Source: an uncultured Pseudomonadota bacterium
GTDB lineage: Bacteria; SAR324; NAC60-12
Direction of reading: 5' to 3'
NCBI GenBank assembly: GCA_913020725.1
Contig: CAJWCD010000060.1
Span: forward strand, 1-21,150
DNA length: 21,150 bases
Shown here: one piece after another, positions 4,215-20,874 of the stretch
Numbering within the stretch: position 1 is the first letter of the stretch
How the letters are laid out: each line of letters starts with the position of its first letter
Made by a program: the position numbers and the translations under genes
The notes under the pieces: generated by a model
What the model was told of the DNA's origin: nothing
The model's input: the letters and a program-made list of their open reading frames with translations, nothing else
The model's database searches: none

Positions 4215-4782
4215 TCACTCCGCCCAGAGCGCAGAGAGCGGAAAAGTGATCGCGTCAAACGGTGCAACACGGATTTCATCGTTTCCTCCGTAACTCCCCA
4301 GCAGAGTCCATTGCCCGTCTTGCAGGGCAAAGGCTTCCAACAGCTTGATTTTCTGGTCCACCAGCCAGCAGTGGGCAACTCCGAATTCCACATAAATTGG
4401 GAGCTTGAGGACACGATCCGTGCGAGCCGTGGAGGGCGACAGCACTTCGCACACCCAATCCAGAGCGAGTTCGAAATAGGCGGTTTCCGGGATTTTCGGC
4501 AGCCGCTCCCTGCACCAGCCTGCAAGATCGGGAACCAGCACATGCTCGCCAAGATGCATCTCCGGCTCGTCCAGAATCCACCCGCCGCCAGGGCCGCCGC
4601 GCCCCTTGTGGAAAGGGCTGACCAGTTCATCGCCAATTGACGAAGACGTGACTGCATGACTCGGAGTTGGTCGGGGGTGCGTGTGCAGTTCCCCGCAAAG
4701 GATTTCTGCAACCAGTGGTTCCGGAACCGCAAGCAGGTCGGCGTATCGCTTGCGGCTCGATTGTTGTGGCTAAGGAACTCAT
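4215..4782 (-). pseudogene. Uma2-family (PD-(D/E)XK) endonuclease, frameshifted near the 5' end
   Basis: CAGGAGG RBS and ATG 4782 (MSSLATTIEPQA). Frame change at about 4746 into YADLLAVPEPLVAEILCGELHTHPRP...ILDEPEMHLGEHVLVPDLAGW...DWVCEVLSPSTARTDRVLKLPIY. Confidence 0.8.
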
Positions 4783-4978: not shown

Positions 4979-6886
4979 CTAGAGCAGCACAAATCCGAGG
5001 ATGAGCATGGCTCCCAACGAGAAGATGAGCACATAGCTCTGCATCATCCCGTTTTGGGTGAGGCGCAAACCACTACCGATTCCACGGGCGACATTTCCGG
5101 GCAGCATCACCAGCCGATCAATGATATTTTGGTCAATCAGTTTCCAGAGTACGAAGGTGGAAAACAGTTTTGCAGGCACGACGATGACGGCGTTGTAGAT
5201 TTCATCCACATACCACTTGTGGAGAGAGAGCCGATACGCCAGTTGAAAACGCTCGCGGAGGATGGCTACGGCTTCAAGGCTCGTTGCGTAGTAGCGCCGA
5301 GCTAGTGACCAAGCAATGATTGCAAGCAAAACGGAGGCGATCATCAGCCCAACCTCTGCGGCGGCGGAACCATGGCTGGTTCCCGGAACTTGCGCGAAGA
5401 AGCCCTCGAAGTAAAGCTCTATGCCGTTGGGCAGAAAATTCAGGATGTGGGGAACCCCGAAGAAACCTCCAAACACAGACAGCACTGCAAGGATCACGAG
5501 CGGCACCGTCATCACTGCTGGAGATTCGTGCAAATGTTCAGCAATGTGGGCATCCACCCGGGACTCCCCGTGGAAGGTGAGGTAGATGAGCCGGAACATA
5601 TAGAACGAGGTCAACCCTGCGGTGACAAAGCCGACCAACCAGAAACCTCCGCCCCCCAAGGGTGAACTGAACGCTTTCCAGAGGATTTCATCCTTGCTGA
5701 AGAATCCGGAGAAAAAGGGAATGCCTGCAATCGCCAATGTGCCCATCAGCATTGTGAAGTAAGTCACAGGCAGTTTTCTGCGCAGTGCGCCCATGCGCAT
5801 CATGTCCTGTTCGTGGTGCATTGCATAGATCACTGATCCGGAACCGAGGAAGAGCAACGCTTTGAAGAAGGCGTGGGTCATGACATGAAAGATACCTGCG
5901 GAGAACGCCCCCACCCCAAGTGCGAGGAACATGTAACCCAACTGGCTGACGGTGGAGTATGCCAACACACGCTTGATGTCTGTCTGCGTGAGCGCAATGG
6001 TCGCCGCCAACAAGGCTGTGGCTGCACCAATGACTGCGATCATGTTCATCGTGAAGGGCGCCAGCACGAAGAGGTGGCTGAGTCGAGCGATCATGTAAAG
6101 TCCCGCCGTCACCATCGTTGCGGCATGGATGAGCGCGGAAACCGGAGTCGGCCCCTCCATTGCGTCCGGAAGCCAGACATAGAGCGGAATCTGCGCGGAT
6201 TTTCCGGTGGCTCCAAGGAAGAGGAAAAGTGTGATCACCGTCACCAAAATGCCTCCGGCTTCCAAGCGCGAGGCGGCTTCGGCGTTGACCATATTGAAAT
6301 TGAGAGTGCCGAAGGTGATGAAAATCAACATCACGGCAGAAAGCACTCCGAAGTCACCCACGCGGTTGAAGAGGAACGCCTTCTTAGACGCCTCAGCAGC
6401 CGAGTGTTTCTCGAAATAGTAGCCGATCAGCAGATATGAACAGAGGCCCACCCCTTCCCAGCCGACGAACATCAGCAAGAAGCTGTCGCCCAACACGAGA
6501 ACGAGCATGAAGAAGATGAAGAGGTTAAGGTAGGCGAAGTAGCGGTAGTAGCCCGCTTCCTCCCCCATGTAGCCGATCGAATAAACGTGGATGAGAAAAC
6601 CCACGCCCGTGATGATCAGGAGATAGAGTCCGGAAAGCTGATCAACCTGAAAGGCAACATCGACCTGGAAAGCACCCGTCGCCATCCAAGTGTACAGCGT
6701 CTCCACTAGACGGTGTCCATCCGCTGCCCGCATTTCAAAGAAGAGGATGAGAGACTGCAAAAACGCAAAGCCCACCGCCGCCGGAGCGATGATCGTGACG
6801 AAACGCTTACCGAAGAACTTTCCAAAAAAACCGTTGAGAAGGAAGCCCAGCAGTGGAAAAGCCGGGACCAGCCAGATTTGAGACAT
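4979..6886 (-). CDS. nuoL: NADH-quinone oxidoreductase subunit L
   Basis: Polytopic membrane protein with GWEGVGLCSYLLIG, NRVGD, GKSAQIPLYVWLPDAMEGPTPVSALIHAATMVTAG, KRVLAYSTVSQLGYM, THAFFKALLFL. ATG 6886 lies just after the nuoK stop. Confidence 0.96.
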   Translation of the reverse strand: MSQIWLVPAFPLLGFLLNGFFGKFFGKRFVTIIAPAAVGFAFLQSLILFFEMRAADGHRLVETLYTWMATGAFQVDVAFQVDQLSGLYLLIITGVGFLIHVYSIGYMGEEAGYYRYFAYLNLFIFFMLVLVLGDSFLLMFVGWEGVGLCSYLLIGYYFEKHSAAEASKKAFLFNRVGDFGVLSAVMLIFITFGTLNFNMVNAEAASRLEAGGILVTVITLFLFLGATGKSAQIPLYVWLPDAMEGPTPVSALIHAATMVTAGLYMIARLSHLFVLAPFTMNMIAVIGAATALLAATIALTQTDIKRVLAYSTVSQLGYMFLALGVGAFSAGIFHVMTHAFFKALLFLGSGSVIYAMHHEQDMMRMGALRRKLPVTYFTMLMGTLAIAGIPFFSGFFSKDEILWKAFSSPLGGGGFWLVGFVTAGLTSFYMFRLIYLTFHGESRVDAHIAEHLHESPAVMTVPLVILAVLSVFGGFFGVPHILNFLPNGIELYFEGFFAQVPGTSHGSAAAEVGLMIASVLLAIIAWSLARRYYATSLEAVAILRERFQLAYRLSLHKWYVDEIYNAVIVVPAKLFSTFVLWKLIDQNIIDRLVMLPGNVARGIGSGLRLTQNGMMQSYVLIFSLGAMLILGFVLL

Positions 6887-6888
6887 GG

Positions 6889-7191
6889 CTACCACTTGAG
6901 CAGATTGAATTCGTCGATGTTGAGCGTCTTGCGGGTCCGGTAGATGGAGAGGATGATCGAGAGTCCGACCACCGCTTCTGCTGCCGCTACGACAATGATG
7001 AAAAAGATGAAGATGACACCCGTCATGTCGTCCATCGTGCGTGCAAAGCCGACGAAGGAGAGGTTCACGGCGTTGAGCATCAGTTCGATGCTCATGAAAA
7101 CGACAATGACGTTGCGGCGCAACATGACCCCCAGCACTCCAATGCTAAAGAGCAGGGCACTGAGGACGAGGACATGGGAGATGGGAATCAT
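6889..7191 (-). CDS. nuoK: NADH-quinone oxidoreductase subunit K
   Basis: 100 aa, [20 protein letters not shown] and [10 protein letters not shown]. Confidence 0.96.
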
Positions 7192-7199
7192 CCGGACTC

Positions 7200-7712
7200 T
7201 CAGGAAACGCGTCGTTTAGCGATGATGACCGCCCCAATCACGGCGACCAGCAGCAGAATCGAAATGACCTCAAACGGCAGCACGAACTCCGTGAAGAGCA
7301 ACTGCCCGATGAGAGCGATGGAACCAATTTCCTGAATGCGCTCCACAGGATAGGCTCCGGGTTCGCCAAAGCGGATCGTCGGGTCCATGAACGCTGTGAG
7401 GATTTGGACAAGCAGCACTCCCGTGGTGGCGACCGCCAGACCTCTCGGCACATTGAGCTTGAGGGCGTATTGATCGTTGTCGTTTGAGGAAAGCAGCATG
7501 AGCACGAAAAGGAACAGCACCATGATCGCACCTGCGTACACCAAGACCTGAATCACCGCGACAAACTCGGCGTTGAGCATGACATAGATCGCCGCAAGGC
7601 AGAAGAAGGTACCCACAAGGCTGAGAGCGCTGTGGATGGGGTTCTTGAACACCAGTACCCCCAAGGCCAAGAGCAGGCTGGCCAAGGCGAAAACATAGAA
7701 GAAAACGATCAT
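7200..7712 (-). CDS. nuoJ: NADH-quinone oxidoreductase subunit J
   Basis: 170 aa, [44 protein letters not shown]. Confidence 0.95.
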
Positions 7713-8017
7713 CCGGCTTTATTGGCAGTAGGGGTTTAGGCAGAAGCTGTGCGGAGATCGACGAGCGAGCGCCCGGAATCACTTGACTCGCCGGGGAGCA
7801 AAGTTCCGGCTAAGGTACCCACAAGGCTGAGAGCGCTGTGGATGGGGTTCTTGAACACCAGTACCCCCAAGGCCAAGAGCAGGCTGGCCAAGGCGAAAAC
7901 ATAGAAGAAAACGATCATCCGGCTTTATTGGCAGTAGGGGTTTAGGCAGAAGCTGTGCGGAGATCGACGAGCGAGCGCCCGGAATCACTTGACTCGCCGG
8001 GGAGCAAAGTTCCGGCT
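7606..8017. repeat. Perfect 2 x 206-bp tandem duplication (7606-7811, 7812-8017) of the nuoG 3' end / nuoJ 5' end
   Basis: Both copies run AAGGTACCCACAAGG...GAGCAAAGTTCCGGCT and are identical by eye. The duplication creates the chimeric 60-aa ORF 7736-7918 (NuoJ N-terminus + NuoG C-terminus). Confidence 0.95.
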
Positions 8018-9582
8018 TCGGAAATCCCGGTCAACGAAATGTTCTGAAAAGCTGGAACCTCCTGACCAAGTGCCTGCAAAACCGTGTCCGCGCTATCAAG
8101 CCCAGAGTCTTTGTCCAAGACTCGAAGCAGATCGGCAAAAATCTGCCACTCCGGGCGAGTCTGCCGTGGGGCTTGCACCGCGCTGTGGGTGCGCTGCACC
8201 CGTCGTTGCTTGTTCGTGTAGGTCGCGTTCTGCTCAGAATGCAGTTGTCCGGGAAGCACGACATCGGCAATCTCGGCCCAACCGTTGAAGAGTGTGCTGA
8301 TTGACACAATCAGTTGGGCTTTGCTGAGTGTCTCCCGAAGTTCCGTTGCGTTCTCAAACGGATTGCCGAGGACGATGACCACCTTGGGGTTTGCCGCAAG
8401 CGCGGTTGCAAGTTCTGCCGTGTCAGCCACTCCGGTGAGTCCAAGTTCGCGGGCACCGGCACGGTTCGGAGTCTTGTCTGTGGTGATGAGCGAATTAATG
8501 AAAAAATCAGATTCCGGCTGCTGCCAGTCTGGCATTGGGCAATAGACCTGCTCTGCACCTAAGCCGTCTTGTGCGAACTTCCTGAACATGAACAGCGCCT
8601 CGTTGCTGGCGTTCGTGTCGGTCAACACCAATACGTCTCCCGCTCCCGGATTGAGGGTGGAAATGCGCTCGGCGAGTGCCTGATACGCCTGTTCAAAGGA
8701 AACTGGCTGTAGCTTCCCCTGCACACGGCCCAGCGGTTTCATGATGCGGTTTTCGCGCTCGTTCATCACGCGGTAGCTGAGGCGTCCCTCATCACACATC
8801 CACCAGCGGTTGACGGCTGGATTCTCACGCGGCTTGAGCCGGAAGACCTCGTTCTTGTCGTACTCGATGGTGACATTGCAACCCGTGGAGCATCCAGTGC
8901 AAATCGACGGGGTTTTCTTGAGACGCCAGACGCGGCGCTTGAAGCGGAACTCCTTGTCCGTGATCGCTCCGACCGGGCAGATGTCCGCCATGTTGCCCTG
9001 AAACTTATTGGTCATTGGACGGTCGGCGTAGGTGTCCACCGTCAATTCATGCCCCCGGTTGTACATGCCAAACTCGTTGGTGCCCGTGACCTCGCGGGTG
9101 AAGCGGTCGCAGCGCGTACAGTGAATGCAGCGGTTGCGTTCCAGCGCGACGAAGGTGCCAATGTCCCGCCAACCATACACGCGCTTGGCGTACTCCATCT
9201 CGGACTTCCCCGTGCCGTGTTCAAAGGAATAATCCTGCAACACGCACTCGCCGGACTGATCGCAGATTGGGCAATCGAGCGGATGGTTGATGAGCAGAAA
9301 CTCCATCACATCTTCGCGGGCCTCTAGCGTCTTTGTGTTCTGCGTTTCCACCTTCATGCCCTCCACCGCGTCCATCGAACACGAGGTCTGGAGCTTCGGC
9401 ATCGGACGTCCATTGCCCATGTCCACCACGTCCACAAGGCACATGCGGCAGGTCGCCACCACCGAGAGTCCAGGATGGAAGCAGTAGTGTGGAACCTCGA
9501 CCCCGGCACGGAGCGCGGCGGACAGCACCTTCTCTCCCGGTTCAAACTCAACGGGCTGGCCATCCAAGTGGAAAACAGGCAT
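7942..9582 (-). CDS. nuoG: NADH-quinone oxidoreductase subunit G (short form, 546 aa)
   Basis: N1b motif YCFHPGLSVVATCRMC..SC, N5 motif HPLDCPICDQSGEC, N4 motif CIHCTRC..ICP, N7-type CTGCSTGC..MCD, and a molybdopterin-oxidoreductase-like C-terminus. Confidence 0.92.
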   Translation of the reverse strand: MPVFHLDGQPVEFEPGEKVLSAALRAGVEVPHYCFHPGLSVVATCRMCLVDVVDMGNGRPMPKLQTSCSMDAVEGMKVETQNTKTLEAREDVMEFLLINHPLDCPICDQSGECVLQDYSFEHGTGKSEMEYAKRVYGWRDIGTFVALERNRCIHCTRCDRFTREVTGTNEFGMYNRGHELTVDTYADRPMTNKFQGNMADICPVGAITDKEFRFKRRVWRLKKTPSICTGCSTGCNVTIEYDKNEVFRLKPRENPAVNRWWMCDEGRLSYRVMNERENRIMKPLGRVQGKLQPVSFEQAYQALAERISTLNPGAGDVLVLTDTNASNEALFMFRKFAQDGLGAEQVYCPMPDWQQPESDFFINSLITTDKTPNRAGARELGLTGVADTAELATALAANPKVVIVLGNPFENATELRETLSKAQLIVSISTLFNGWAEIADVVLPGQLHSEQNATYTNKQRRVQRTHSAVQAPRQTRPEWQIFADLLRVLDKDSGLDSADTVLQALGQEVPAFQNISLTGISEAGTLLPGESSDSGRSLVDLRTASA

Positions 9583-9707
9583 TGCTGGTTGCTGGTTGGT
9601 TTATAGTTGTCAGTTGTCAGTGTTCAGCTATCGGTTTCCGGCTTTGTTTCTCTGTCCACTGAACACGCTCTAAGCTTTGTCGCTCATCTGCCTTTTGCCT
9701 TCTGCCT
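9582..9707. repeat. Degenerate heptamer repeats in the nuoF-nuoG spacer
   Basis: TTGCTGG x2; GTTGTCA GTTGTCA GTGTTCA GCTATCG; TCTGCCT TTTGCCT TCTGCCT (9687-9707). Confidence 0.65.
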
Positions 9708-9710
9708 TAT

Positions 9711-10970
9711 TCAGGCAGCGAGGGCTTGGACCTCGCGGAACTCATCCGCGAATTTAGTCGTGAACGCTTGAATGGGCATGCCGCAGGCATCCCCAAGCGC
9801 ACAAACCGTGGTGCCTATCATGTTGCCACCCACACGGTGCAGACGCTTGAGCTTGCGCTCGTTGCCGTTACCGTCAAGAAAGTCCCGGATGATCATGCGT
9901 GCCCAGTGCGTGCCTTCACGGCAGGGGGTGCATTGTCCGCAGGATTCATGGCTGAAGAAGCGGACGATACGGTGCAACAGCTTGACGGAATCCGTGTCTT
10001 CATCAAACACCATGATCGCCGCCGAACCCATCATCGTTCCGGCTTTGGCGAGGGCATCAAAGGAGTAGGTGACATCAATCTCAGCGGCAGTCAGCACGGA
10101 AGAGGACGCGCCTCCCGGAATCACCCCCTTGAGCTTTTTGCCGTTGGGAATGCCGCCACCGAGATCGTAAATGATGTCCTTGAGGTTCGCGTCCAGCCGC
10201 ACCTCATAGACTCCGGGCTTGTTGACGTGTCCGCTGAGGCTGATGAGGTGAGTGCCCGCGTTGTTCTCCGGGCCGAACGATTTGAACACCTCTGCGCCTT
10301 CGTTGACAATGAAGGGCAGGCAGGCAAGCGTTTCAACATTGTTCACCGTCGTCGGGCAGGCGTTGAATCCGGAAACTGCCGGGAAGGGCGGCTTGACTCG
10401 CGGATGGCCGCGCTTGCCCTCAATCGAATCGAGCAGGGCGGTTTCCTCCCCGCAGATGTAAGCCCCGGCTCCAGGGTGGACGGTCAGGTCGAGCTTTGGC
10501 CCTTTGCCGAGCAGTTTTTCACCAAGGATGCCGTCATCGTACAACTCCTGCACCGCCGCGTTGAGCGACTTGATGGAGGGCCAGTATTCGCCCCGGACGT
10601 AGATATACCCGTGTCGGCAGCCAATGGCGAGGCAACTGATCATCATGCCCTCCAGAAATTGATGCGGGTCGTGGAGCATCAGCTCACGGTCCTTGCAGGT
10701 TCCGGGTTCGGATTCGTCGGCGTTGCAGACGAGGTAAGTCGGCTTGCCCGTACCCTTCGCCATGAAACTCCACTTGAGTCCGGTCGGGAAGCCTGCGCCA
10801 CCGCGTCCCCGCAGTCCGGAATCTTTCGTGAGTTGCACAATTTCGCCGGGCTGCATCTCCAGCGCCTTCCTCAGTGCCGTGAAGCCGCCTGTCTTTTTGT
10901 AGCCCTTGAGGGATTTGTCGTAGTCGGAGTTCCGGATGTTCCGGAAGAGTACCAGCGTTTCCTCAAGCAT
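9711..10970 (-). CDS. nuoF: NADH-quinone oxidoreductase subunit F
   Basis: GLRGRGGAGFPTGLKW, NADESEPGT, GAGAYICGEETAL, ESCGQCTPCREG..C. Confidence 0.97.
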   Translation of the reverse strand: MLEETLVLFRNIRNSDYDKSLKGYKKTGGFTALRKALEMQPGEIVQLTKDSGLRGRGGAGFPTGLKWSFMAKGTGKPTYLVCNADESEPGTCKDRELMLHDPHQFLEGMMISCLAIGCRHGYIYVRGEYWPSIKSLNAAVQELYDDGILGEKLLGKGPKLDLTVHPGAGAYICGEETALLDSIEGKRGHPRVKPPFPAVSGFNACPTTVNNVETLACLPFIVNEGAEVFKSFGPENNAGTHLISLSGHVNKPGVYEVRLDANLKDIIYDLGGGIPNGKKLKGVIPGGASSSVLTAAEIDVTYSFDALAKAGTMMGSAAIMVFDEDTDSVKLLHRIVRFFSHESCGQCTPCREGTHWARMIIRDFLDGNGNERKLKRLHRVGGNMIGTTVCALGDACGMPIQAFTTKFADEFREVQALAA

Positions 10971-11484
10971 GGGCCTGTCCTTGTGTACGCAGTTTGTCCA
11001 GCAGTCGGTCCAGCTTCTCCGGATTCATCTGCTCGTGGTAGTCCTCGTTGACGATCACAGCAGGGGCGTAGCTGCAGGCGCCGATGCACTCGACCTCTTC
11101 CACACTAAACACGCCATCGTCCGCCGTGTGGCCCGCGTGCGTGTCCAGCTGCTGCTCCACATGCTCCAAAAGCTCTTCGCCGCCCAGCAGACAGCAAGGC
11201 ACACAGGTGCAAACCTGCAGATGAAACTTTCCGGGCTTCTCCAGCTTGTACATCGTGTAGAAGCTGATGACGCCTTCAACGTGGGTTTGGGAAACCTCGC
11301 AGATGCCCGCCACCTCTTCAAGCAGTTCCGGGGTTAGGTAGCCTGCGTTGGCCTTTTGCACCACATGCAGGATCGGCAGTAGAGCGTTGCGCTTGATGGG
11401 ATAGCGGCTGAGGAGTTGCGTGATTTCCTTCTGAGTGTCCGGAGCAAGCAAGCGAGCGTTTGGGGTTGGAGTTTGAAAAACCAA
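10963..11484 (-). CDS. nuoE: NADH-quinone oxidoreductase subunit E
   Basis: [2Fe-2S] motifs CTCVPC and CIGAC, plus ALLPILH and SFYTMY. Overlaps the nuoF start. The TTG start is uncertain. Confidence 0.9.
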   Translation of the reverse strand: MVFQTPTPNARLLAPDTQKEITQLLSRYPIKRNALLPILHVVQKANAGYLTPELLEEVAGICEVSQTHVEGVISFYTMYKLEKPGKFHLQVCTCVPCCLLGGEELLEHVEQQLDTHAGHTADDGVFSVEEVECIGACSYAPAVIVNEDYHEQMNPEKLDRLLDKLRTQGQAHA

Positions 11485-11748: not shown

Positions 11749-13458
11749 ATGAACGGTGCACAAGTTGTGATCGAGGCATTTGAACGCGAGGACGTTGATT
11801 TTGTGTTTGGGTACCCGGGCGGAGCGTGCATGCCCATTTTTGACGCCTTGGTGGATGCCTCGAAACTCAAGCTCGTCCTCGTCCGGCACGAACAGGGCGG
11901 CACCCACATGGCAGATGGCTATGCCCGCGCCACTGGCAAGCCCGGCGTGGTCCTCGTCACTTCCGGTCCCGGTGCAACGAACACGGTCACCGGATTGCTC
12001 ACCGCCCAGATGGATTCAGTCCCGCTAGTTGTGGTCACGGGCCAGACGCTCACAGTGAACCTCGGCAAGGACGCCTTTCAGGAAGCCGATGTCTTTGGAG
12101 TCACCATGCCGGTGGTCAAGCACAGCTACCTCGTCAAGGACATCAACGACTTGCCTCGCGTACTGAAAGAGGCGTTTTACATTGCCAGTTCCGGGCGTCC
12201 GGGGCCGGTGTTGGTAGACATTCCCAAGGACGTGCAGACCGCCGAATGCACCGCCGACTTCCCAGACAAAGTGGACATGCCCGGTTATCAGGTGCAGACC
12301 CGCTGCGATCCGGACGACTTGCAACGCACGGCAGATCTGCTCATGAACTCCAAACGCCCACTGCTTTATGTGGGGGCAGGCGCAGTGATCTCCCAAGCCG
12401 GAAAGCAGGTGCGGGCCTTGGCCGAAAAGCTGGGGGCACCGGTCACCACCACTCTGCTCGGCAAGGGAGCGTTTCCGGAAACCCATGAATTGTCCGTGGG
12501 AATGCTTGGGATGCACGGCACCGCCTACGCGAACAAGACGGTGGTGGACTGTGATTTGATCATGGCCATCGGCGCCCGCTGGGACGACCGTATCACCGGC
12601 AAGGTCAGTGCCTTCTGTCCGGAGGCCGTCAAGATTCACATCGACATCGACCCCGCCGAGTTTGGCAAGATCATCCAGCCCGATATCTCACTTCAGGGTG
12701 ATGCGAGCCTTGTGCTCGCAGACTTGCTTCCGCTCGTGAAACCTCTCAAGACCAAGCCGTGGCTCACACAGATCGCGAAGTGGAAACGACGGCATCCCCT
12801 CAAGTACCCCAAGCGCGGCGGCTTGCGGGCACAGCATGTTCTTGACGAACTGAACCGACTCACAGAATCGCGTGGTGTGATCGCCACCGACGTGGGGCAG
12901 CATCAGATGTGGGCGGCACAGTTCTGCAAATCCTCCCGCGAGCGTCAGTGGCTCTCCAGCGGCGGAGCCGGAACGATGGGTTACGGACTCCCAGCAGCTA
13001 TTGGCGCACAGTTTGGATGTCCGGATGATCTGGTGATTGCCGTGGTGGGTGATGGCGGCTTCCAGATGACGCAGTTCGAACTGGCCACGGCAGCAATCCA
13101 CAAGCTCCCGATCAAGATCCTCGTCATCAACAACAGCTACCTCGGCATGGTCCGGCAGTGGCAGCAGTTGTTCTTTGACAACCGCGAGAGCGGCGTGGGC
13201 ATGGAGGGCAATCCGGACTTCGTGAAACTCGCCGAAGCCTATGGGATCAAGAGCTTCCGCATCCGCCGTGCTGGAGATGTCACCCGCATTCTCAAGAAGG
13301 CCCTGGACTACAACGCTGGCCCGGTGTTGATTGATGCCGTGGTGGTCAAGGCCGATAACGTGTTCCCGATGATTCCTTCAGGCGCTCCGGTCGCAGACAT
13401 GTTGATCGATGAGCCGCCTCCAACCACCAAGCTCGAAAAACCTGTCGGCAGCACCTGA
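11749..13458 (+). CDS. ilvB: Acetolactate synthase large subunit (biosynthetic type)
   Basis: FGYPGG, RHEQ, TSGPGATN, GMLGMHG, DVGQHQMW, GTMGYGLPAAIGA, GDGG...NN TPP motif. CAGGAG RBS. Confidence 0.96.
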   Translation: MNGAQVVIEAFEREDVDFVFGYPGGACMPIFDALVDASKLKLVLVRHEQGGTHMADGYARATGKPGVVLVTSGPGATNTVTGLLTAQMDSVPLVVVTGQTLTVNLGKDAFQEADVFGVTMPVVKHSYLVKDINDLPRVLKEAFYIASSGRPGPVLVDIPKDVQTAECTADFPDKVDMPGYQVQTRCDPDDLQRTADLLMNSKRPLLYVGAGAVISQAGKQVRALAEKLGAPVTTTLLGKGAFPETHELSVGMLGMHGTAYANKTVVDCDLIMAIGARWDDRITGKVSAFCPEAVKIHIDIDPAEFGKIIQPDISLQGDASLVLADLLPLVKPLKTKPWLTQIAKWKRRHPLKYPKRGGLRAQHVLDELNRLTESRGVIATDVGQHQMWAAQFCKSSRERQWLSSGGAGTMGYGLPAAIGAQFGCPDDLVIAVVGDGGFQMTQFELATAAIHKLPIKILVINNSYLGMVRQWQQLFFDNRESGVGMEGNPDFVKLAEAYGIKSFRIRRAGDVTRILKKALDYNAGPVLIDAVVVKADNVFPMIPSGAPVADMLIDEPPPTTKLEKPVGST

Positions 13459-13510
13459 TTGCATTGAGCATCCACCCTTCAGAAGTCTGGACCCTGCCTC
13501 ATGGGTTCTA

Positions 13511-13552
13511 GGCTCCTGAATTCTGACTCCTGAATTCTGACTCCTGACCCTC
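13511..13552. repeat. Heptamer tandem repeat between ilvB and ilvN
   Basis: GGCTCCT GAATTCT GACTCCT GAATTCT GACTCCT GACCCTC. Confidence 0.8.
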
Positions 13553-14044
13553 ATGGAAGAGCAATTCACCATCAGCATCTTCGTCAATAACAAGCCCGGC
13601 GTCCTCGTCAGGATCGCCCAAACCTTCGCCCGGCGCGGCTACAACGTGGCATCCCTCGTCGTTTCCGCCGCACACGATCCGCAGTTCTCGCGGATGACTG
13701 TGGTGGTGATCGGCAATCCGGTTGACTTCGACCAGATCCTCCGGCAGCTCAACAAACTCGTGGATGTCGTCCACGCCTCGCACCACGAATCATCGGATTC
13801 CGTGGATCGTGAAATGGCACTCTTCAAGGTCGAGGTCGAGCCGGAATTGCGCTCAGCAGTGTTTCAGGTGGTGGAGGTCTTCCGGGCCAAGACGGTGGAC
13901 ATCACCGAGCGGTCACTCATCATCGAGACCACCGGGAATTCCTCGAAGATTGATGCGCTGGAGCGGCTGCTGGGCACGATGGGGCTGGTGGAGATGGTCC
14001 GGACCGGCAAGCTCATCATGGCCCGAGGTGCCGCAGAAACTTGA
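13553..14044 (+). CDS. ilvN: Acetolactate synthase small (regulatory) subunit
   Basis: ACT domain NKPGVLVRIAQTFARRGYNV, QLNKLVDV, REMALFKV, EMVRTG. Directly downstream of ilvB. Confidence 0.95.
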   Translation: MEEQFTISIFVNNKPGVLVRIAQTFARRGYNVASLVVSAAHDPQFSRMTVVVIGNPVDFDQILRQLNKLVDVVHASHHESSDSVDREMALFKVEVEPELRSAVFQVVEVFRAKTVDITERSLIIETTGNSSKIDALERLLGTMGLVEMVRTGKLIMARGAAET

Positions 14045-14046
14045 GT

Positions 14047-14280
14047 TCAGAGAAACCGGGAGACGAGGTACTTCTTGATGGTTTCGGATTCCTTCATCGT
14101 CTTGCCCTCCACCACCAAGCACGGCACGGTCTTGTTGCCGGTGCGCTCAATCAGTTCTGCCTCAAACTCCGGATGCTCCCGGATGTTCTTCAGTTCCACC
14201 TGATCCAGCACCTTGAGATTCCTGAGCGTGTTCAGCACTGCCTGCGAAAAACCGCACGCTTCGTAGTAGTACAGTTCCAT
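14047..14280 (-). CDS. Small glutaredoxin-like protein with CGFS active site
   Basis: 77 aa, MELYYYEACGFS...TGNKTVPCL...ES..I..YL. Thioredoxin fold with the cis-Pro TVP motif. Confidence 0.85.
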   Translation of the reverse strand: MELYYYEACGFSQAVLNTLRNLKVLDQVELKNIREHPEFEAELIERTGNKTVPCLVVEGKTMKESETIKKYLVSRFL

Positions 14281-14325: not shown

Positions 14326-14790
14326 TCAGCTGTTGTTGATTTTTTGGCACTCGGCCAGCAAATCGGCGGCGTAGCGTCGGCCTCCGGCCTCGACCAGCGC
14401 GGCGTAGCGCACCACGCCTTGCTTGTCAATGATCACGGTCGAGCGGGCGATGAGACCCCTCTTCTCCAAGTACACCCCATATGACTGGGCCATTGCGCCC
14501 TTGGGATGGAAGTCCGCCAGCAGTGGGTACGAAACCCCACCGAGGGAACTGGCCCAGTTGTCATGGCTGAACTTGCTGTCCACGCTCACACCCAGAACCT
14601 GAGTGTCTGCGGCCTTGAAGTCGGCGATGCTCTGCTCCAAGTCCGGAATCTCCTTGCTTCAAGTGGACGTCCAGTCGAGGGGGTAGAAGACGAGCATGAC
14701 ATGCTTCTGTCCCTTGAATTGACTCAGGGAAAATTCCCCAAGCTGGCTGTCCAACGTGAAGTCCGAAGCCTGTGATCCAACCTCGATCAT
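14326..14790 (-). CDS. Peroxiredoxin (AhpC/TSA family, AhpE-like), putative selenoprotein with UGA at codon 44
   Basis: AAGGAG RBS and ATG 14790 give MIEVGSQASDFTLDSQLGEFSLSQFKGQKHVMLVFYPLDWTST-[TGA 14661-14659]-SKEIPDLEQSIADFKAADTQVLGVSVDS...LLADF...ARSTVIIDKQGVVRY. The TGA occupies the C of the PxxxTxxC motif and the frame continues to 154 aa. Confidence 0.9.
14635..14648 (-). promoter_or_regulatory. Candidate bacterial SECIS upper stem-loop
   Basis: mRNA UGA-AGCAAGGAGA-UUCC-GGACUU-GGAG: a short stem starting at +11 after the UGA with a G-initiated apical loop. The stem is short and was not folded computationally. Confidence 0.45.
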
Positions 14791-14948
14791 GTGCACTCCT
14801 TTGCTTGATGTTAGAAATTGAGAGTCCGCGCCACAAGCGGTGTAGGTGGATTTATTGGAGCGATTTCCACGAATATAGGCAAGGCGTTTTCAAGGTCAAC
14901 GAGAGAGTGCTCCCCGTCTGAACTCCGGAACTGAAAAAACGCTTGGAG

Positions 14949-15047: not shown

Positions 15048-15467
15048 ATGCCAAATCTGGACGGAACCAAAACACACGAGAACCTCAAAGACGCCTTCGC
15101 AGGGGAGTCTCAAGCCAATCGCCGCTACCTCTGGATGGCCAAGGCTGCCGATGTTGAGGGCTTCCCGGAAATTGCCGGAAATTTCCGGCAGACCGCCGAA
15201 GGAGAAACTGGCCACGCCCACGGACACCTCGACTACCTCCAGCAGGTGGGTGATCCTGCCACAGGTCTGCCCATCGGAGAAACCCCGGAAAACCTGAAGG
15301 CCTCCATCGCTGGGGAAACCCACGAGTACACGGACATGTATCCGGGCATGGCAAAATCCGCCCGCGAGGAAGGCTTCGGTGAAATCGCCGACTGGTTCGA
15401 GACCCTCGCCAAGGCCGAGAAATCCCACGCCGGACGCTTCCAGCAAATGCTCAACAGCGTCTCCTGA
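15048..15467 (+). CDS. Rubrerythrin-family protein, short form without the rubredoxin domain
   Basis: [40 protein letters not shown] di-iron ligands, and no C-terminal CxxC. AAGGAG RBS. Confidence 0.93.
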
Positions 15468-15583
15468 TTGCACCGTTGGGAACCCAAGCGTTCGTGCTGC
15501 AATTGTGGCGCGAACGCCCCACCTTTTTATATTTCCCGGCACCCTTGCCTGTCTGCTTCCTCCGCTAAGAACAGGTTTCTGAC

Positions 15584-16945
15584 ATGAGCACTGAATCCGA
15601 AAACATCTCCTATCTGCCCTCGGACGGCCTCTGCTACGATCCGAGCGAACCCAAGTATTGGGACGAGTCGGCCTTCCAAAAGGAACTCACTCGCGCCTAC
15701 GAAATCTGCCACGGTTGCCGCAGGTGCTTCAAGTACTGCGACTCCTTCCCCACGCTCTTCGATTTGCTCGACCAGCAGTACGACGGAGATGTCCGGAAGG
15801 TGAACGCGCAGGACACCGAGCGCATCATGAACGCCTGTTTCCAGTGCAAGCTTTGCGAGGTGCAGTGCCCGTACACCCCCCGTGAGGAGCACGAATTCCA
15901 GCTCGATTTCCCGAAGCTTGTCCACCGCTACAAGGCGCTTGAGGCAAAGCAACGACCACCCTCGCTACGAGATCGGGTGCTGCGTGATCCGGACGCTTCC
16001 GCCAAGGCGGCGCGGGCCAGCTTCGGCCTTGCCAACGCAATGAACCGCGCCAAGGCGCACCGCTGGCTGCTGGAAAAGGCACTCGGCATTCACCGGGACA
16101 AGGAGCTTCCGGATTTTGCCCCACGGACCTTTGAGCAAATTGCCGGGGATCGTGGGAAAATCCAGTCGGCGACCGAGGGTGTCGAGGCGGTGCTGTTTCA
16201 GACGTGTTACGTCCAGAACAACGAGCCGCAGATTGGGCAGGACACTTTGGAGGTGTTGGAGCGGAGTCAGGTCAACTGCGCCTGTGCCAAGGGACTCCAG
16301 TGCTGCGGGATGCCTGCGTGGGAACAGGGCAACTTGGAACTCGTCCGCAAGCAAGCCCAGCACAACCTCGATGTGCTGCTGCCTTATGTCGCGTCCGGAG
16401 CAAAGGTGCTGGCGATCAACCCAACCTGTTCGATGATGATGTCCCGCGAATATCCGGAACTGCTTGCAGGCAAGGATCGGGAACGGGCGCAGCAGCTTGC
16501 AGAAGCGGTACAGAACCCCGCTGATTTCCTCTGGAAGATCCGCAAGGAGGAACGTTTCAACAAGGATTTCAAAAGCACTCCGGGGGAGAAAGTGGCCTAC
16601 CACGCCCCGTGCCACTTGCGCACACAAGGAGTCGGCTTCAAGGGGCGTGACCTGCTCCGGCAGATTCCCGGAGTGAAACCCACGACCACGATGGAATGCT
16701 GTGGACACGATGGCACCTATGCCATGAAGGTCGAGTCCTTCGAGGATTCCGGACGCATCGGCAAGAAGGCATTTGACGGCATGAAGGACGCCCGTGCAGA
16801 AGTCTGGGCGACTGACTGCCCACTGGCCGCGATTCAGTTCGGACAATTTGCGGGAGTCCGCGCCATGCACCCCATGTCCATCCTCGCCCGTGCCTACCGC
16901 GAGGACGGTTTCCCCCAAAAAATCACACCATCCGAAGAAGTTTAA
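15584..16945 (+). CDS. Rubrerythrin-associated Fe-S oxidoreductase (GlpC/HdrD-like, two 4Fe-4S motifs + two CCG domains)
   Basis: CHGCRRCFKYC, CFQCKLCEVQCP, QCCGMP, YHAPCH, ECCGHDGTY, TDCPLA. Confidence 0.88.
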   Translation: MSTESENISYLPSDGLCYDPSEPKYWDESAFQKELTRAYEICHGCRRCFKYCDSFPTLFDLLDQQYDGDVRKVNAQDTERIMNACFQCKLCEVQCPYTPREEHEFQLDFPKLVHRYKALEAKQRPPSLRDRVLRDPDASAKAARASFGLANAMNRAKAHRWLLEKALGIHRDKELPDFAPRTFEQIAGDRGKIQSATEGVEAVLFQTCYVQNNEPQIGQDTLEVLERSQVNCACAKGLQCCGMPAWEQGNLELVRKQAQHNLDVLLPYVASGAKVLAINPTCSMMMSREYPELLAGKDRERAQQLAEAVQNPADFLWKIRKEERFNKDFKSTPGEKVAYHAPCHLRTQGVGFKGRDLLRQIPGVKPTTTMECCGHDGTYAMKVESFEDSGRIGKKAFDGMKDARAEVWATDCPLAAIQFGQFAGVRAMHPMSILARAYREDGFPQKITPSEEV

Positions 16946-17502
16946 TGCGCCCTGTCGAACGCCACGAAATCATTGATTACGCCACTTACGAGGAACAGCG
17001 CAACGCAATCCGCGAGCAGGTTCTCAAGGTCAAGGAAGCCCACCGCATTCATGTTGGCGACCACCTCACTTTTCTCTTTGAGAACGCCGAGACGGTGCGC
17101 TATCAGGTGCAGGAGATGATGCGAACAGAGAAGATTGTCAAGGAATCCGACATCCAACACGAGATCAACACTTACAACGAACTGCTGGGTGCGGAAGGAG
17201 AGTTGGGCTGCGTCCTGCTCATCGAATACACCAGCCCGGAGGAACGCGACGTGCAACTCCGCAAGCTGCTTGGCCTGCCGGAAAAGCTCTATGCGCTCTT
17301 GGAGGACGGACGGCGGATTCCCGCGAAATTCGATGATCGGCAAATTGACGACGACCGGCTCTCCTCCGTGCAGTACCTCAAGTTCAACACTGGAGGCGCA
17401 ACGCCTGTCGCGCTGGGTAGCGACCACCCAAACCTCATGCTGGAAGCTCCTCTTTCGCATGAACAACGACAAGCCCTCACAGAGGATTTGACATCTCAAT
17501 GA
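16945..17502 (+). CDS. DUF3501-family protein
   Basis: RIHVGDHLTFLFEN..TVRYQVQEMMRTE, EINTYNELL, SSVQYLKF. TAATG coupling to the upstream gene and the typical position after rubrerythrin and the Fe-S oxidoreductase. Confidence 0.85.
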   Translation: MRPVERHEIIDYATYEEQRNAIREQVLKVKEAHRIHVGDHLTFLFENAETVRYQVQEMMRTEKIVKESDIQHEINTYNELLGAEGELGCVLLIEYTSPEERDVQLRKLLGLPEKLYALLEDGRRIPAKFDDRQIDDDRLSSVQYLKFNTGGATPVALGSDHPNLMLEAPLSHEQRQALTEDLTSQ

Positions 17503-17679: not shown

Positions 17680-20600
17680 TTATTCCAACTCCCCCTGAAT
17701 CTCGATAATCGCGGATTCAAGCGCGTCCAGTGTTTCCGGATTCGCGTCTTCCCAGAGCTGGCGTTCGTGGGCTTCGAGCAGACGTTGGGCGGCATCGCGC
17801 AAGGCGAGCGGGTTGTGGTCTCGGAAGAACTGCTGTTGTTCCGGATCAAGCAACAGTGTTTGAGCGATCTCCTCGTACTGGTAGTCTGCCACGATGTCGC
17901 AGGTCGCGTCGTAGCCAAAGAGGTAATCCACGGTTGCCGCCATCTCAAACGCGCCCTTGTAGCCGTGTTCGCGCATCCCGGAAATCCACTTTGGGTTGAG
18001 GACGCGGCTGCGGAAGACGCGGTTGAACTCCTCCTTGAGGGTGCGGATGCGCACTTTTTCCGGGTTTGCAGAATCGCCGTGGTAGGTGATCGGAGCTTGC
18101 CCGCGCAGTTCGGAAACGGCGGCGTGGAGTCCGCCCTGAAACTGGAAGTAATCGTCTGAGTCGAGCAAGTCGTGTTCGCGGTTGTCCTGGTTCTGGTGGA
18201 CGATCTCCACGGTGGAAAGCCGATCCCGGAGCAAGCCGATTTCCTCGGTGCTGGAGCCGTCGGCGCGGTAGGCGTGCCCACCCCACTTGAGGAAGACCTC
18301 GGTGAGGTCGCCCTTCGTTTCCCAGTTGCCTGCGTCAATCAGTGGCAACAGGCCCGTGCCGTAGCATCCGGGACCAGAACTGAAGACGCGCAACTCGGCC
18401 AACTGCTCTGCCACTTCCGGGGCATGCCCCGACTCCACCAGCCGTTGCTGATCCCGGAGCCACGCGGCCCGAATCGGGTTGAGGTCTTCCGGTTCGTCCA
18501 GTGCGGCGAGGCGTTTCGGAATGGTGGACAGCAGCCGCATCGCATCTCCAAAGGCATCCCGGAACATCCCGGAAACGCGCAAGACGACATCCACGCGGGG
18601 TCGTCCCAGCACCGAGACGGGCAGAATCTCGAAATCCACGACACGCCCGGAAATCGGTTCCCAAACCGGCTCGCAGCCCCAAAGCCAGAGCGCCTGTGCC
18701 AAATCGTCACCACCGGTGCGCATGTTCGAGGTGCCCCAGATCACCAACGCCAGCGTCTTTGGCCAGTTGCCGTGGTCAGCCTTGTAGCGTTCCAGCAGCG
18801 CGTCTGCCAGTCGCTGTCCGCATTTCCACGAAGTCTGCGTTGGAAGCACACGCGGATCGATCGAGTAGAAATTGCGTCCGGTCGGCAGCACGTCAATACG
18901 CCCCCGCGTCGGCGCTCCGGCAGGTCCGGGCGCAAGGAACTTCCCGGAGAGGCCGCCCAGCAATCGTTGTGGTTCGAGTGCGCAGCGATCCAGACGTGGA
19001 ATCAGTGTTTCGTGCAACCATTCCCGCAAAGCCTGAATCGCTTCATTGTCCGGGAACGCCCCACCAATTCGTAATTCGTAATTTGTAATTTGTAATTCTC
19101 TTGCCACCCAGTCCCGCGCCAATCCCTCCACGTGGTCACGCTTGGTGATCGACAGGGAATCGAGGTCGAAATCCGACTGCTTGCCGAGCAACGCTTGGAG
19201 CAGCCCGGGGCGTTCCACCGAGGACATTCGCAGTAGGCTGAGCAAAAAATCGAGCCGACGCTCGTGCTGCGGAACTTCGCCAAAAATGTGCAGTCCGGAG
19301 CGGATTTGGCTCTCCTTGAGTTCGCAGAGGTAGTTGCTGAGGGCGTTGAGCCAGTCGTCTTCCTCCGGAAGTTCCTCGCGCCACGGGGCTTCTTCCAGCA
19401 GATGCTCGATTTCGTGTTCCAACTCATGTGCCCGTTCCGGATACATTGTCTCGCACTGGGCGTGTTCCTCCAGCAGCCGCTCCACGCGGTCGAGGGCGTC
19501 GTAGAGTCCAGCGCGGGTGAGCGGCGGGGTGAGGTGATCCACAATCACCGCGGAGGTGCGGCGCTTGGCCTGCGTGCCCTCTCCGGGGTCGTTGACGATG
19601 AAGGGGTAGAGGTGCGGAAGCGGGCCTAGCACGCTTTGCGGAAAATCCTCCGGGCCCAGCGCGACACTGCGTCCCGGAAGCCATTCAAGGTTGCCGTGCT
19701 TACCGAAATGGATGAGCGCATGGGCCTTGAACTCCGTGCGAATCCAGTGGTAGAACGCGAAATAGTTGGGCGGTGGGGCAAGCTCTGGGTCGTGGTAGAT
19801 CGCCTGCGTCTGTAGCCCGAAGCCGCGCTGCGGCTGGATGCCGATGAAGACGTTGCCGAGGCGCATTCCGGCGACCGGAACGGTAGTGTTGGGTTTCCCG
19901 GAGTCAGCATCTTCCGACCACTGCCGCCTTAGCCGCTCCTGCGCGGAGTCGGGCAATCTGGAAAGCACCTGTCCGAGTTCCTCCGAGGAAATTCCCTGCG
20001 CGATTGGTTTGCCATAGCTTTGCTCCTCATCGTTGGTGATTCCTGCCTGAAGTTCCCGGATGAGCGCGTCACCGTCTTCTGGAATTTCACCGACATCGTA
20101 ACCGTCGGTCTGCATTCGGTGCAGAAACTTGACAACACTCGCCGGGGTGTCCAGTCCCACGCCGTTGCCAAGTCGGCTGTCGCGGTTGGGGTAGTTTGCC
20201 AGAATGATGGCAATGTGTTTCTCGGCGTTCGAGACTTTCCGGAGCTGCACCCAGTTCGCCGCAAGTTCAGCAACGAACTGAATTTGCGCGGTATCCGGTT
20301 CTACGCCTTTGGCCTGAAACTCCAGTTCCGGGTGCGTCGCCTGCGTTTCTTTGAAGCCGACTGCCGTGGTCAGCACCCGCCCGTCGGTTTCGGGCAAAGC
20401 CACCGACATCGCCACATTGGAGGGCGTGAGGCCACGCGGGTTCGCCTGCCACGCCTCACGGCTGTCCGAGGACGCCACCACCTGCAAGACCGGACAGCCG
20501 AGGGTTTCCAAAAACGAAACCCGCTCGTCGAGCCGCCCGATGGAAAAGCTCTGGAGCGTCAGCACCACGTCCGGAGGGTCAACCTCAGCGCGGCGTAGCA

Positions 20601-20874
20601 GTTCCTCCTGTGCCTCCGGCTCCCGTAGCGAGTAGGCGTAGAAGGCGGAAACTTCGAGTCCGCACGAAATCAAGGCTCCTGCCAGCGCGTCCACCACGGC
20701 AAGGTCGCCCGTCTGGTGCCAGGCGCGGTAGAAGGTGATCCAGGCGCGTCCGGGAGCAGAAGCACCACCGGAAGAGGAGCGCAAGAGGATGTCTGGTTTC
20801 AAAGTGGTCAGCCGCTGGGGGTTCTGCTTGGGAACGGGAGGTGTTTTCTTCTCCGGATTCATCACAGAGGGCAC
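17680..20874 (-). CDS. cobN: Cobaltochelatase subunit CobN, apparently lacking the usual N-terminal segment
   Basis: ALPETDGR, NYPNRDSRLGNGVGLDTPAS, HFGKHGNLEWLPG, YPFIVNDPGEGTQAKRR, LPTGRNFYS, GRPRVDV, DSDDY, NPKWISGMREHGYKGA. 1064 aa; the start is uncertain (GTG 20874 or ATG 20862). Confidence 0.92.
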   Translation of the reverse strand: MPSVMNPEKKTPPVPKQNPQRLTTLKPDILLRSSSGGASAPGRAWITFYRAWHQTGDLAVVDALAGALISCGLEVSAFYAYSLREPEAQEELLRRAEVDPPDVVLTLQSFSIGRLDERVSFLETLGCPVLQVVASSDSREAWQANPRGLTPSNVAMSVALPETDGRVLTTAVGFKETQATHPELEFQAKGVEPDTAQIQFVAELAANWVQLRKVSNAEKHIAIILANYPNRDSRLGNGVGLDTPASVVKFLHRMQTDGYDVGEIPEDGDALIRELQAGITNDEEQSYGKPIAQGISSEELGQVLSRLPDSAQERLRRQWSEDADSGKPNTTVPVAGMRLGNVFIGIQPQRGFGLQTQAIYHDPELAPPPNYFAFYHWIRTEFKAHALIHFGKHGNLEWLPGRSVALGPEDFPQSVLGPLPHLYPFIVNDPGEGTQAKRRTSAVIVDHLTPPLTRAGLYDALDRVERLLEEHAQCETMYPERAHELEHEIEHLLEEAPWREELPEEDDWLNALSNYLCELKESQIRSGLHIFGEVPQHERRLDFLLSLLRMSSVERPGLLQALLGKQSDFDLDSLSITKRDHVEGLARDWVARELQITNYELRIGGAFPDNEAIQALREWLHETLIPRLDRCALEPQRLLGGLSGKFLAPGPAGAPTRGRIDVLPTGRNFYSIDPRVLPTQTSWKCGQRLADALLERYKADHGNWPKTLALVIWGTSNMRTGGDDLAQALWLWGCEPVWEPISGRVVDFEILPVSVLGRPRVDVVLRVSGMFRDAFGDAMRLLSTIPKRLAALDEPEDLNPIRAAWLRDQQRLVESGHAPEVAEQLAELRVFSSGPGCYGTGLLPLIDAGNWETKGDLTEVFLKWGGHAYRADGSSTEEIGLLRDRLSTVEIVHQNQDNREHDLLDSDDYFQFQGGLHAAVSELRGQAPITYHGDSANPEKVRIRTLKEEFNRVFRSRVLNPKWISGMREHGYKGAFEMAATVDYLFGYDATCDIVADYQYEEIAQTLLLDPEQQQFFRDHNPLALRDAAQRLLEAHERQLWEDANPETLDALESAIIEIQGELE
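19066..19098. repeat. Heptamer tandem repeat inside cobN
   Basis: AATTCGT AATTCGT AATTTGT AATTTGT AATTC, an AT-rich patch in a GC-rich CDS, encoding ELQITNYELRI. Confidence 0.85.

Follow-up and report, generated by a model that had tools for sequence, protein, structure and literature searches.

The window, i.e., the whole stretch of 21,150 nucleotides that was analysed, carries on its minus strand a peroxiredoxin gene with an in-frame TGA, followed 45 nt downstream and on the same strand by a glutaredoxin-like gene. The features of this locus are the following, with their basis in brackets.

14326..14790, minus strand: gene for an AhpE-like peroxiredoxin of 154 aa, with a predicted selenocysteine (Sec) at codon 44 (frame, Pfam and PDB matches)
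14659..14661, minus strand: predicted U44, an in-frame TGA at the peroxidatic position of P37xxxT41xxU44 (codon 44)
14443..14445, minus strand: catalytic Arg116 in ARSTVIID (aligned proteins, AhpE Arg)
14347..14349, minus strand: Cys148 in the last helix, alpha5 (residues 141-154), a possible resolving Cys (helix H141-154 of the predicted model)
14796..14801, minus strand: ribosome-binding site AAGGAG, 5 nt 5' of the ATG (sequence)
14872..14899, minus strand: Sigma70-like promoter match TTGACC-16-TATATT, upstream of the peroxiredoxin gene (consensus match only)
14610..14645, minus strand: best SECIS candidate, a long interrupted stem-loop from +16 to +51 counted from the U of UGA (minimum-energy fold)
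14635..14648, minus strand: short hairpin of the original prediction, which excludes the long stem and vice versa (-2.5 kcal/mol)
14047..14280, minus strand: glutaredoxin/GST-N-like gene of 77 aa, with CGFS and TVPC (Pfam Glutaredoxin, 43.8 bits against a cut-off of 22.9)

The remainder of the window contains genes of various functions. Divergent from the peroxiredoxin gene, positions 15048-17502 (plus strand) encode a rubrerythrin, a CCG-domain Fe-S oxidoreductase and a DUF3501 protein, which together with the peroxiredoxin make an oxidative-stress cluster. The set of rubrerythrin, CCG-domain and DUF3501 genes presumably corresponds to a described rubrerythrin neighbourhood. On the other side, ilvB-ilvN (11749-14044, plus strand) ends 2 nt from the convergent glutaredoxin gene. 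Complex I genes occupy 4979-11484 (minus strand) in the order nuoE, F, G, J, K, L as judged by sequence, with nuoG alone confirmed by Pfam and with nuoH and nuoI not lying between G and J. A fused anthranilate synthase (TrpE plus glutamine amidotransferase) is encoded at 1908-4046 (plus strand). Possible remnants are a partial DUF6883 frame that follows a tRNA-Arg(CCT) at 1190-1550 and a partial Uma2-family frame at 4215-4559. Finally, a cobN cobaltochelatase gene is found at 17680-20874 (minus strand); its model is matched only from position 196, and the contig end at 21150 possibly truncates the gene.

The peroxiredoxin frame runs over 154 codons from the ATG at 14790 to the TGA stop at 14328-14326, and its sole internal TGA, codon 44, is situated in FYPLDWTST-U-SKE. 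The original prediction had described this frame, with its ribosome-binding site, start codon and single TGA, and all of these elements are present in the sequence. It had also remarked that the open reading frame track shows nothing more than a 104-aa C-terminal piece, which indeed corresponds to 14640..14326 under code 11. The promoter match is one of 2 in the region, where 0.4 would be expected. When the frame is read through the TGA, the protein scores 123.4 bits with the Pfam model AhpC-TSA (cut-off 26) and combines the PxxxTxxU motif (P37, T41, U44) with the catalytic arginine, R116. This arginine is unchanged in 38/38 aligned proteins and matches the AhpE Arg in the alignment. Cys148 is the only Cys of the protein, so that the intact Arg and the single Cys are as they had been claimed. 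The gene is intact and its TGA44 is very likely read as Sec; the product would be an AhpE-type peroxiredoxin of 154 residues, for which the reduction of hydroperoxides at Sec44 is predicted.

This reading is supported by the conservation of codon 44. A total of 111 fetched loci were aligned to the peroxiredoxin, 109 of which span codon 44 (L036 and L037 do not) and 100 of which are unique. Among these 100 loci, 66 have TGA at this codon, 33 have a Cys codon (TGC/TGT) and one has GGA. In the alignment with AhpE, the TGA stands at the place of the peroxidatic Cys. Within the core loci (at least 52% identity), which span records of SAR324, Binatia, Syntrophobacteraceae, Myxococcota, Planctomycetota and Acidobacteriota, TGA is present in 54/55 and GGA in the remaining one. 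Codon usage was compared in the 55 intact core genes, leaving out L021 and L090 as broken: invariant residues near codon 44 are each written with two to five synonymous codons, while codon 44 itself is TGA in all of these genes but one. The alternation of TGA and Cys that had been suggested as a check is thus observed, with TGA in close kin and Cys in more distant homologues; the TGA is not private to this genome, and no core locus has TGC or TGT. Together with the alignment to the AhpE Cys, this bears out the proposal of a Sec-peroxiredoxin. The Cys loci closest to the core are 27 genes, mostly of Acidobacteriota, which group on a supported branch of their own in the tree; this one clade supplies 27/33 of the Cys loci, and the relatives are not independent of each other. 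The tree, calculated without L021 and L090, is unreliably rooted, contains long branches and does not tell in which direction Sec and Cys were exchanged. A Cys is also found at the codon-44 site of the public protein P0044, which is 54% identical. The GGA (Gly) belongs to L088, a Planctomycetota record with an otherwise intact gene, and represents either a one-base error or the loss of the catalytic residue. Further TGA-bearing peroxiredoxins make up family f2 (L022, L026-L032, L034 and L035), consisting of two lineages with 34-40% identity; 9/10 of these loci have no Cys after the TGA, 0/10 have a glutaredoxin neighbour, and several copies occur per genome.

A pseudogene or a base-call error, in which TGC or TGT has become TGA in this genome, would explain the interrupted frame as well. 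The genome (G000) is a draft of 204 contigs with 93% completeness, and two relatives are broken in other ways, L021 by an internal deletion and L090 by a frameshift. In L021, from a genome of the same genus (G002), the second half of the peroxiredoxin is missing and the frame runs into the glutaredoxin gene; L090 additionally has a stop in the glutaredoxin gene. The occurrence of TGA at the same codon in two thirds of the unique loci, from several phyla, already refutes this explanation, and both halves of the frame, including the part downstream of the TGA, are conserved in frame among relatives. Public reads agree with this. At least half of the window's words are found in 19 public runs from 15 studies, one of which is possibly the source of the window DNA. 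From four runs compared with the window, three independent ones have codon 44 unchanged, namely X7 (DNA) and X16 and X17 (RNA libraries), so that no base-call error appears at 14659; the fourth, X3, does not cover the codon and is no evidence. Two read differences lie inside the gene (14455 and 14545), both at third positions and synonymous by reading of the sequence. The RNA-library contigs span codon 44 but do not reveal the strand, the level or whether there is a single transcript; they end near 14733-14742, where the DNA run X7 goes on, and this gives a weak hint only. Altogether, a pseudogene or sequencing error has a negligible probability.

A second alternative is a genome-wide alternative code in which TGA means Trp or Gly, or the production of two real peptides from the frame. 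The GGA of L088 could be taken in this sense, as could the W that many public homologues have at the codon-44 site. In public protein sets (P0002-P0040; P0046-P0121), the homologues occur either as full-length proteins that carry W in place of Sec, which was the case for 9/14 of the proteins fetched, or as fragments of about 100-110 aa. The expectation that standard annotation splits such genes is borne out by these sets, and the W looks like a gene-caller artefact on short contigs. Moreover, TGA is the main stop codon in G000, where it ends 722/1140 frames of at least 400 codons, and it ends the peroxiredoxin gene itself; a genome-wide recoding of TGA is excluded on this ground. The only tRNA with a TCA anticodon in G000 is the single tRNA-SeC reported by ARAGORN. 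Two separate peptides would, according to the predicted model, part the PxxxT loop from R116 within a single domain. This alternative is therefore considered very improbable.

The machinery for Sec insertion, the presence of which had been proposed as a check, is found in G000 with matches above the curated cut-offs for selA (531 bits), selB (388), selD (363) and tRNA-Sec (66). A selA match is also present in 40/41 related genomes. The selD gene of G000 has a TGA of its own, in a CG-U motif. Besides selD (C93:516, plus strand), other likely selenoprotein genes in this genome encode a SelW-like protein with CxxU (C5:47324, plus strand) and a PrdB-like protein with UxxC (C35:5357, plus strand). 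The hairpins of the latter two have the loops GGUCU and GGUCG, which are nearer to the consensus SECIS than that of the peroxiredoxin gene. A blind coding-score scan for TGA read-through, which is noisy, kept 444 of 26,432 candidates; most matches are stops between tightly packed genes. It recovered the peroxiredoxin gene as well as the SelW-like and PrdB-like candidates, while SelD is not among the matches listed (140 of the 444 kept).

Two structures downstream of the UGA were considered as SECIS element. In bacteria, the consensus places the loop 16-37 nt after the UGA, with a G in its first two positions and a folding energy of at most -7.5 kcal/mol, and some elements are described to lie outside this model (PMC13188914, in the available part of this review). 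The stem-loop that had been noticed about 11 nt downstream of the UGA can indeed be folded, with 4 bp, yet it is weak (z -1.7) and probably not the SECIS: it is missing from the minimum-energy fold of longer stretches, and 0/4 of its pairs have a compensatory change among 53 distinct sequences. The short hairpin was rejected as SECIS for its weakness and lack of covariation. Folding of 14600-14661, as had been advised, gives the long stem as minimum-energy fold, but the z-score of this 62-nt region is only -1.05 and the short hairpin is absent from it; after trimming to its own ends, which were chosen post hoc, the long stem reaches z = -2.36. Compared with the consensus, the long stem fits the spacing and the energy but its loop (AUC) is without a G, whereas the short hairpin contains the G and falls short of the energy. 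The consensus G is found in 14/50 predicted apical loops. The register of the long stem (at least 6 pairs) is present in 38/55 core genes versus 4/27 Cys homologues. When the +15 to +60 window is compared with synonymous-codon variants, the mean z is -1.84 for the core genes versus -0.28 for the Cys genes; none of the 22 windows compared gives a stronger signal, although one upstream of the UGA reaches z -1.54. RNAalifold on 54 sequences gave no consensus structure, and covariation of the long stem is weak, with 61.6% of cells paired versus 58.3% (1/500 shuffles) and a score matched by 43/500. The long stem at 14645-14610 is likely the SECIS, and is named here as a putative one.

Concerning the class of the enzyme, the best PDB sequence matches are AhpE proteins (E 1e-28), which take all of the top 7 places. 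The predicted model (pLDDT 95.7) finds AhpE in all of its top ten PDB fold matches, with TM 0.90-0.92, followed by Prx1 chains with TM 0.87-0.91 and lower identity. The peroxiredoxin is thus predicted to be AhpE-like, in the sense of closest sequence and modelled fold, the subfamily itself being defined by active-site profiles (DASP/PREX; PMC4749874, in part). No NCBIfam cut-off is passed. The best-scoring model, PrxU (NF040737), gives 77.9 bits against a cut-off of 270 and has 233 positions compared to the 154 aa of the window protein, which is thus not a member; we take this model to represent the Sec-peroxiredoxin of the Eubacterium acidaminophilum type. Prx-SUH (NF045827) gives 37.2 bits against a cut-off of 298.

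The genes around the peroxiredoxin suggest how the enzyme may be recycled. Neighbours were counted in 54 core loci, leaving out L021, L090 and the truncated L059. A glutaredoxin-like partner (CxxS) is present in 39/54 loci, adjacent in 30 and fused in 9, one of which (L077) may be a frameshift, and absent in 15. The partner occurs in 0/33 Cys loci and in 0/10 of the other TGA-bearing peroxiredoxin loci. Both Pfam domains are also joined in P0041, a further fusion, and in the fused Cys-form P0044 the glutaredoxin Cys is lost. A PDB sequence search with the glutaredoxin-like protein gave no match. In L012, L014 and L020, a second glutaredoxin-like gene, of the CPFC type, additionally lies upstream of the peroxiredoxin gene. 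With respect to glutathione, G000 has a GCS2-family ligase above the cut-off and a glutathione-synthetase-like gene below it; TIGR02049, a gshA type, has no match in G000 nor in any control genome and is uninformative. In Mycobacterium tuberculosis, mycoredoxin-1 serves to recycle AhpE, by a monothiol route (PMC8113037, in part). Because of the gene coupling and fusion, the glutathione genes and this precedent, the 77-aa CGFS neighbour together with glutathione is preferred as the recycling route, a reading that is somewhat favoured by the gene context.

The enzyme could also be recycled as a 2-Cys type, through a Sec44-C148 selenenylsulfide reduced by thioredoxin, in which case the glutaredoxin-like neighbour would have another job. 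C148 lies in alpha5, where some AhpE members carry their resolving Cys (PMC4749874, in part); it is kept in 36/54 core genes, and none of the 54 is without a Cys in the domain. Thioredoxin reductase TrxB is found above the cut-off in G000, and the 15 core loci without partner and the loss of the glutaredoxin Cys in P0044 count against the glutaredoxin route. Against recycling through C148, this residue is absent in 18/54 genes and is thus not essential clade-wide, while the fusion with a glutaredoxin domain, seen in nine loci and also in P0041, points to a direct link. Furthermore, no canonical thioredoxin was found in the incomplete G000, where two weak PF00085 matches occur, in longer frames only. 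C148 does not track the partner (28/39 with versus 8/15 without). Altogether, thioredoxin-dependent 2-Cys recycling appears rather unlikely, and the glutaredoxin-like neighbour is retained as the probable partner.

The proposed mechanism would proceed in four steps. Firstly, SelD, SelA and tRNA-Sec, the genes of which are present, would make Sec-tRNA, an activity that is well established for these components. Secondly, SelB would insert Sec, guided by a stem-loop after the UGA, for which the 14645-14610 stem is the best candidate. Thirdly, the selenolate, placed by P37, T41 and R116, would attack ROOH to yield a selenenic acid, by analogy to the chemistry of peroxiredoxins. Lastly, the enzyme would most likely be recycled via glutathione and the product of the neighbouring CGFS glutaredoxin-like gene, with C148 as an optional resolving residue.

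Sec-peroxiredoxins are a published prokaryotic family with PF00578 and a TxxU motif (PMC1088965, PMC2398784, PMC5029168 and PMC13188914, each in part), and the window gene shares both the Pfam family and the motif. In the parts of these papers available, they are among the commonest bacterial selenoproteins, with 43 genes in the Sargasso data (PMC1088965), 253 sequences in GOS (PMC2398784) and 91 genes in 78 genomes (PMC5029168). Dataset S1 of PMC2398784 contains 14 PLDWT..TUSKEIP sequences under the heading Peroxiredoxin, which by eye match the lineages of L016, L019 and L070; the clade has therefore been annotated with U since 2008. The find of a Sec-peroxiredoxin is thus sound but ordinary, the clade having been published as a selenoprotein in that year. 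Its main value is an annotation fix, as fragments of 104-107 aa or a Trp at the catalytic site hide the gene in public sets, and with it a likely main peroxide defence of a marine bacterium, which is SAR324-like judging from its relatives. Additionally, the conserved glutaredoxin neighbour and the fusions offer a candidate for how a Sec-peroxiredoxin of AhpE-like type is recycled. In the available text, no subfamilies are distinguished within the published family, "AhpE" does not occur as a term (0 matches) in PMC2398784 and PMC13188914, and the fusion section of PMC2398784 does not hold the glutaredoxin partner. The open-licence literature searched gave no paper that describes the AhpE assignment of this clade or its pairing with a glutaredoxin; subscription papers may bear on it.

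Compared to known systems, the enzyme resembles AhpE of M. tuberculosis (Rv2238c) most closely, with about 1.5 A rmsd, 35% identity, the same length, the same Cys/Sec and Arg register, and no C-terminal tail as in Prx1. Unlike Rv2238c, the window enzyme has Sec in place of Cys45 and an extra Cys in alpha5, and it has a glutaredoxin-like neighbour and probably glutathione instead of mycothiol and mycoredoxin. A peroxiredoxin tied to a glutaredoxin reductant is also known from the Prx5-Grx hybrid of Haemophilus influenzae (PDB 1NM3; PMC8113037, in part). That hybrid belongs to the Prx5 subfamily, is Cys-based and is always fused, whereas the window domain is AhpE-like and its two genes are separate; the clade mostly has two genes, with a partner that is usually CxxS. 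The window pair does not belong to this hybrid type and at most works alike. The evidence is about evenly balanced on whether the clade constitutes a Sec-AhpE paired with a dedicated glutaredoxin that depends on glutathione, in the form of either two genes or one fusion, and decoded via a long SECIS without the usual loop G across SAR324, Binatia, Myxococcota, Planctomycetota and Acidobacteriota. If so, the AhpE-mycoredoxin pair and the Prx5-Grx hybrid would both have in it a Sec counterpart that has not been described.
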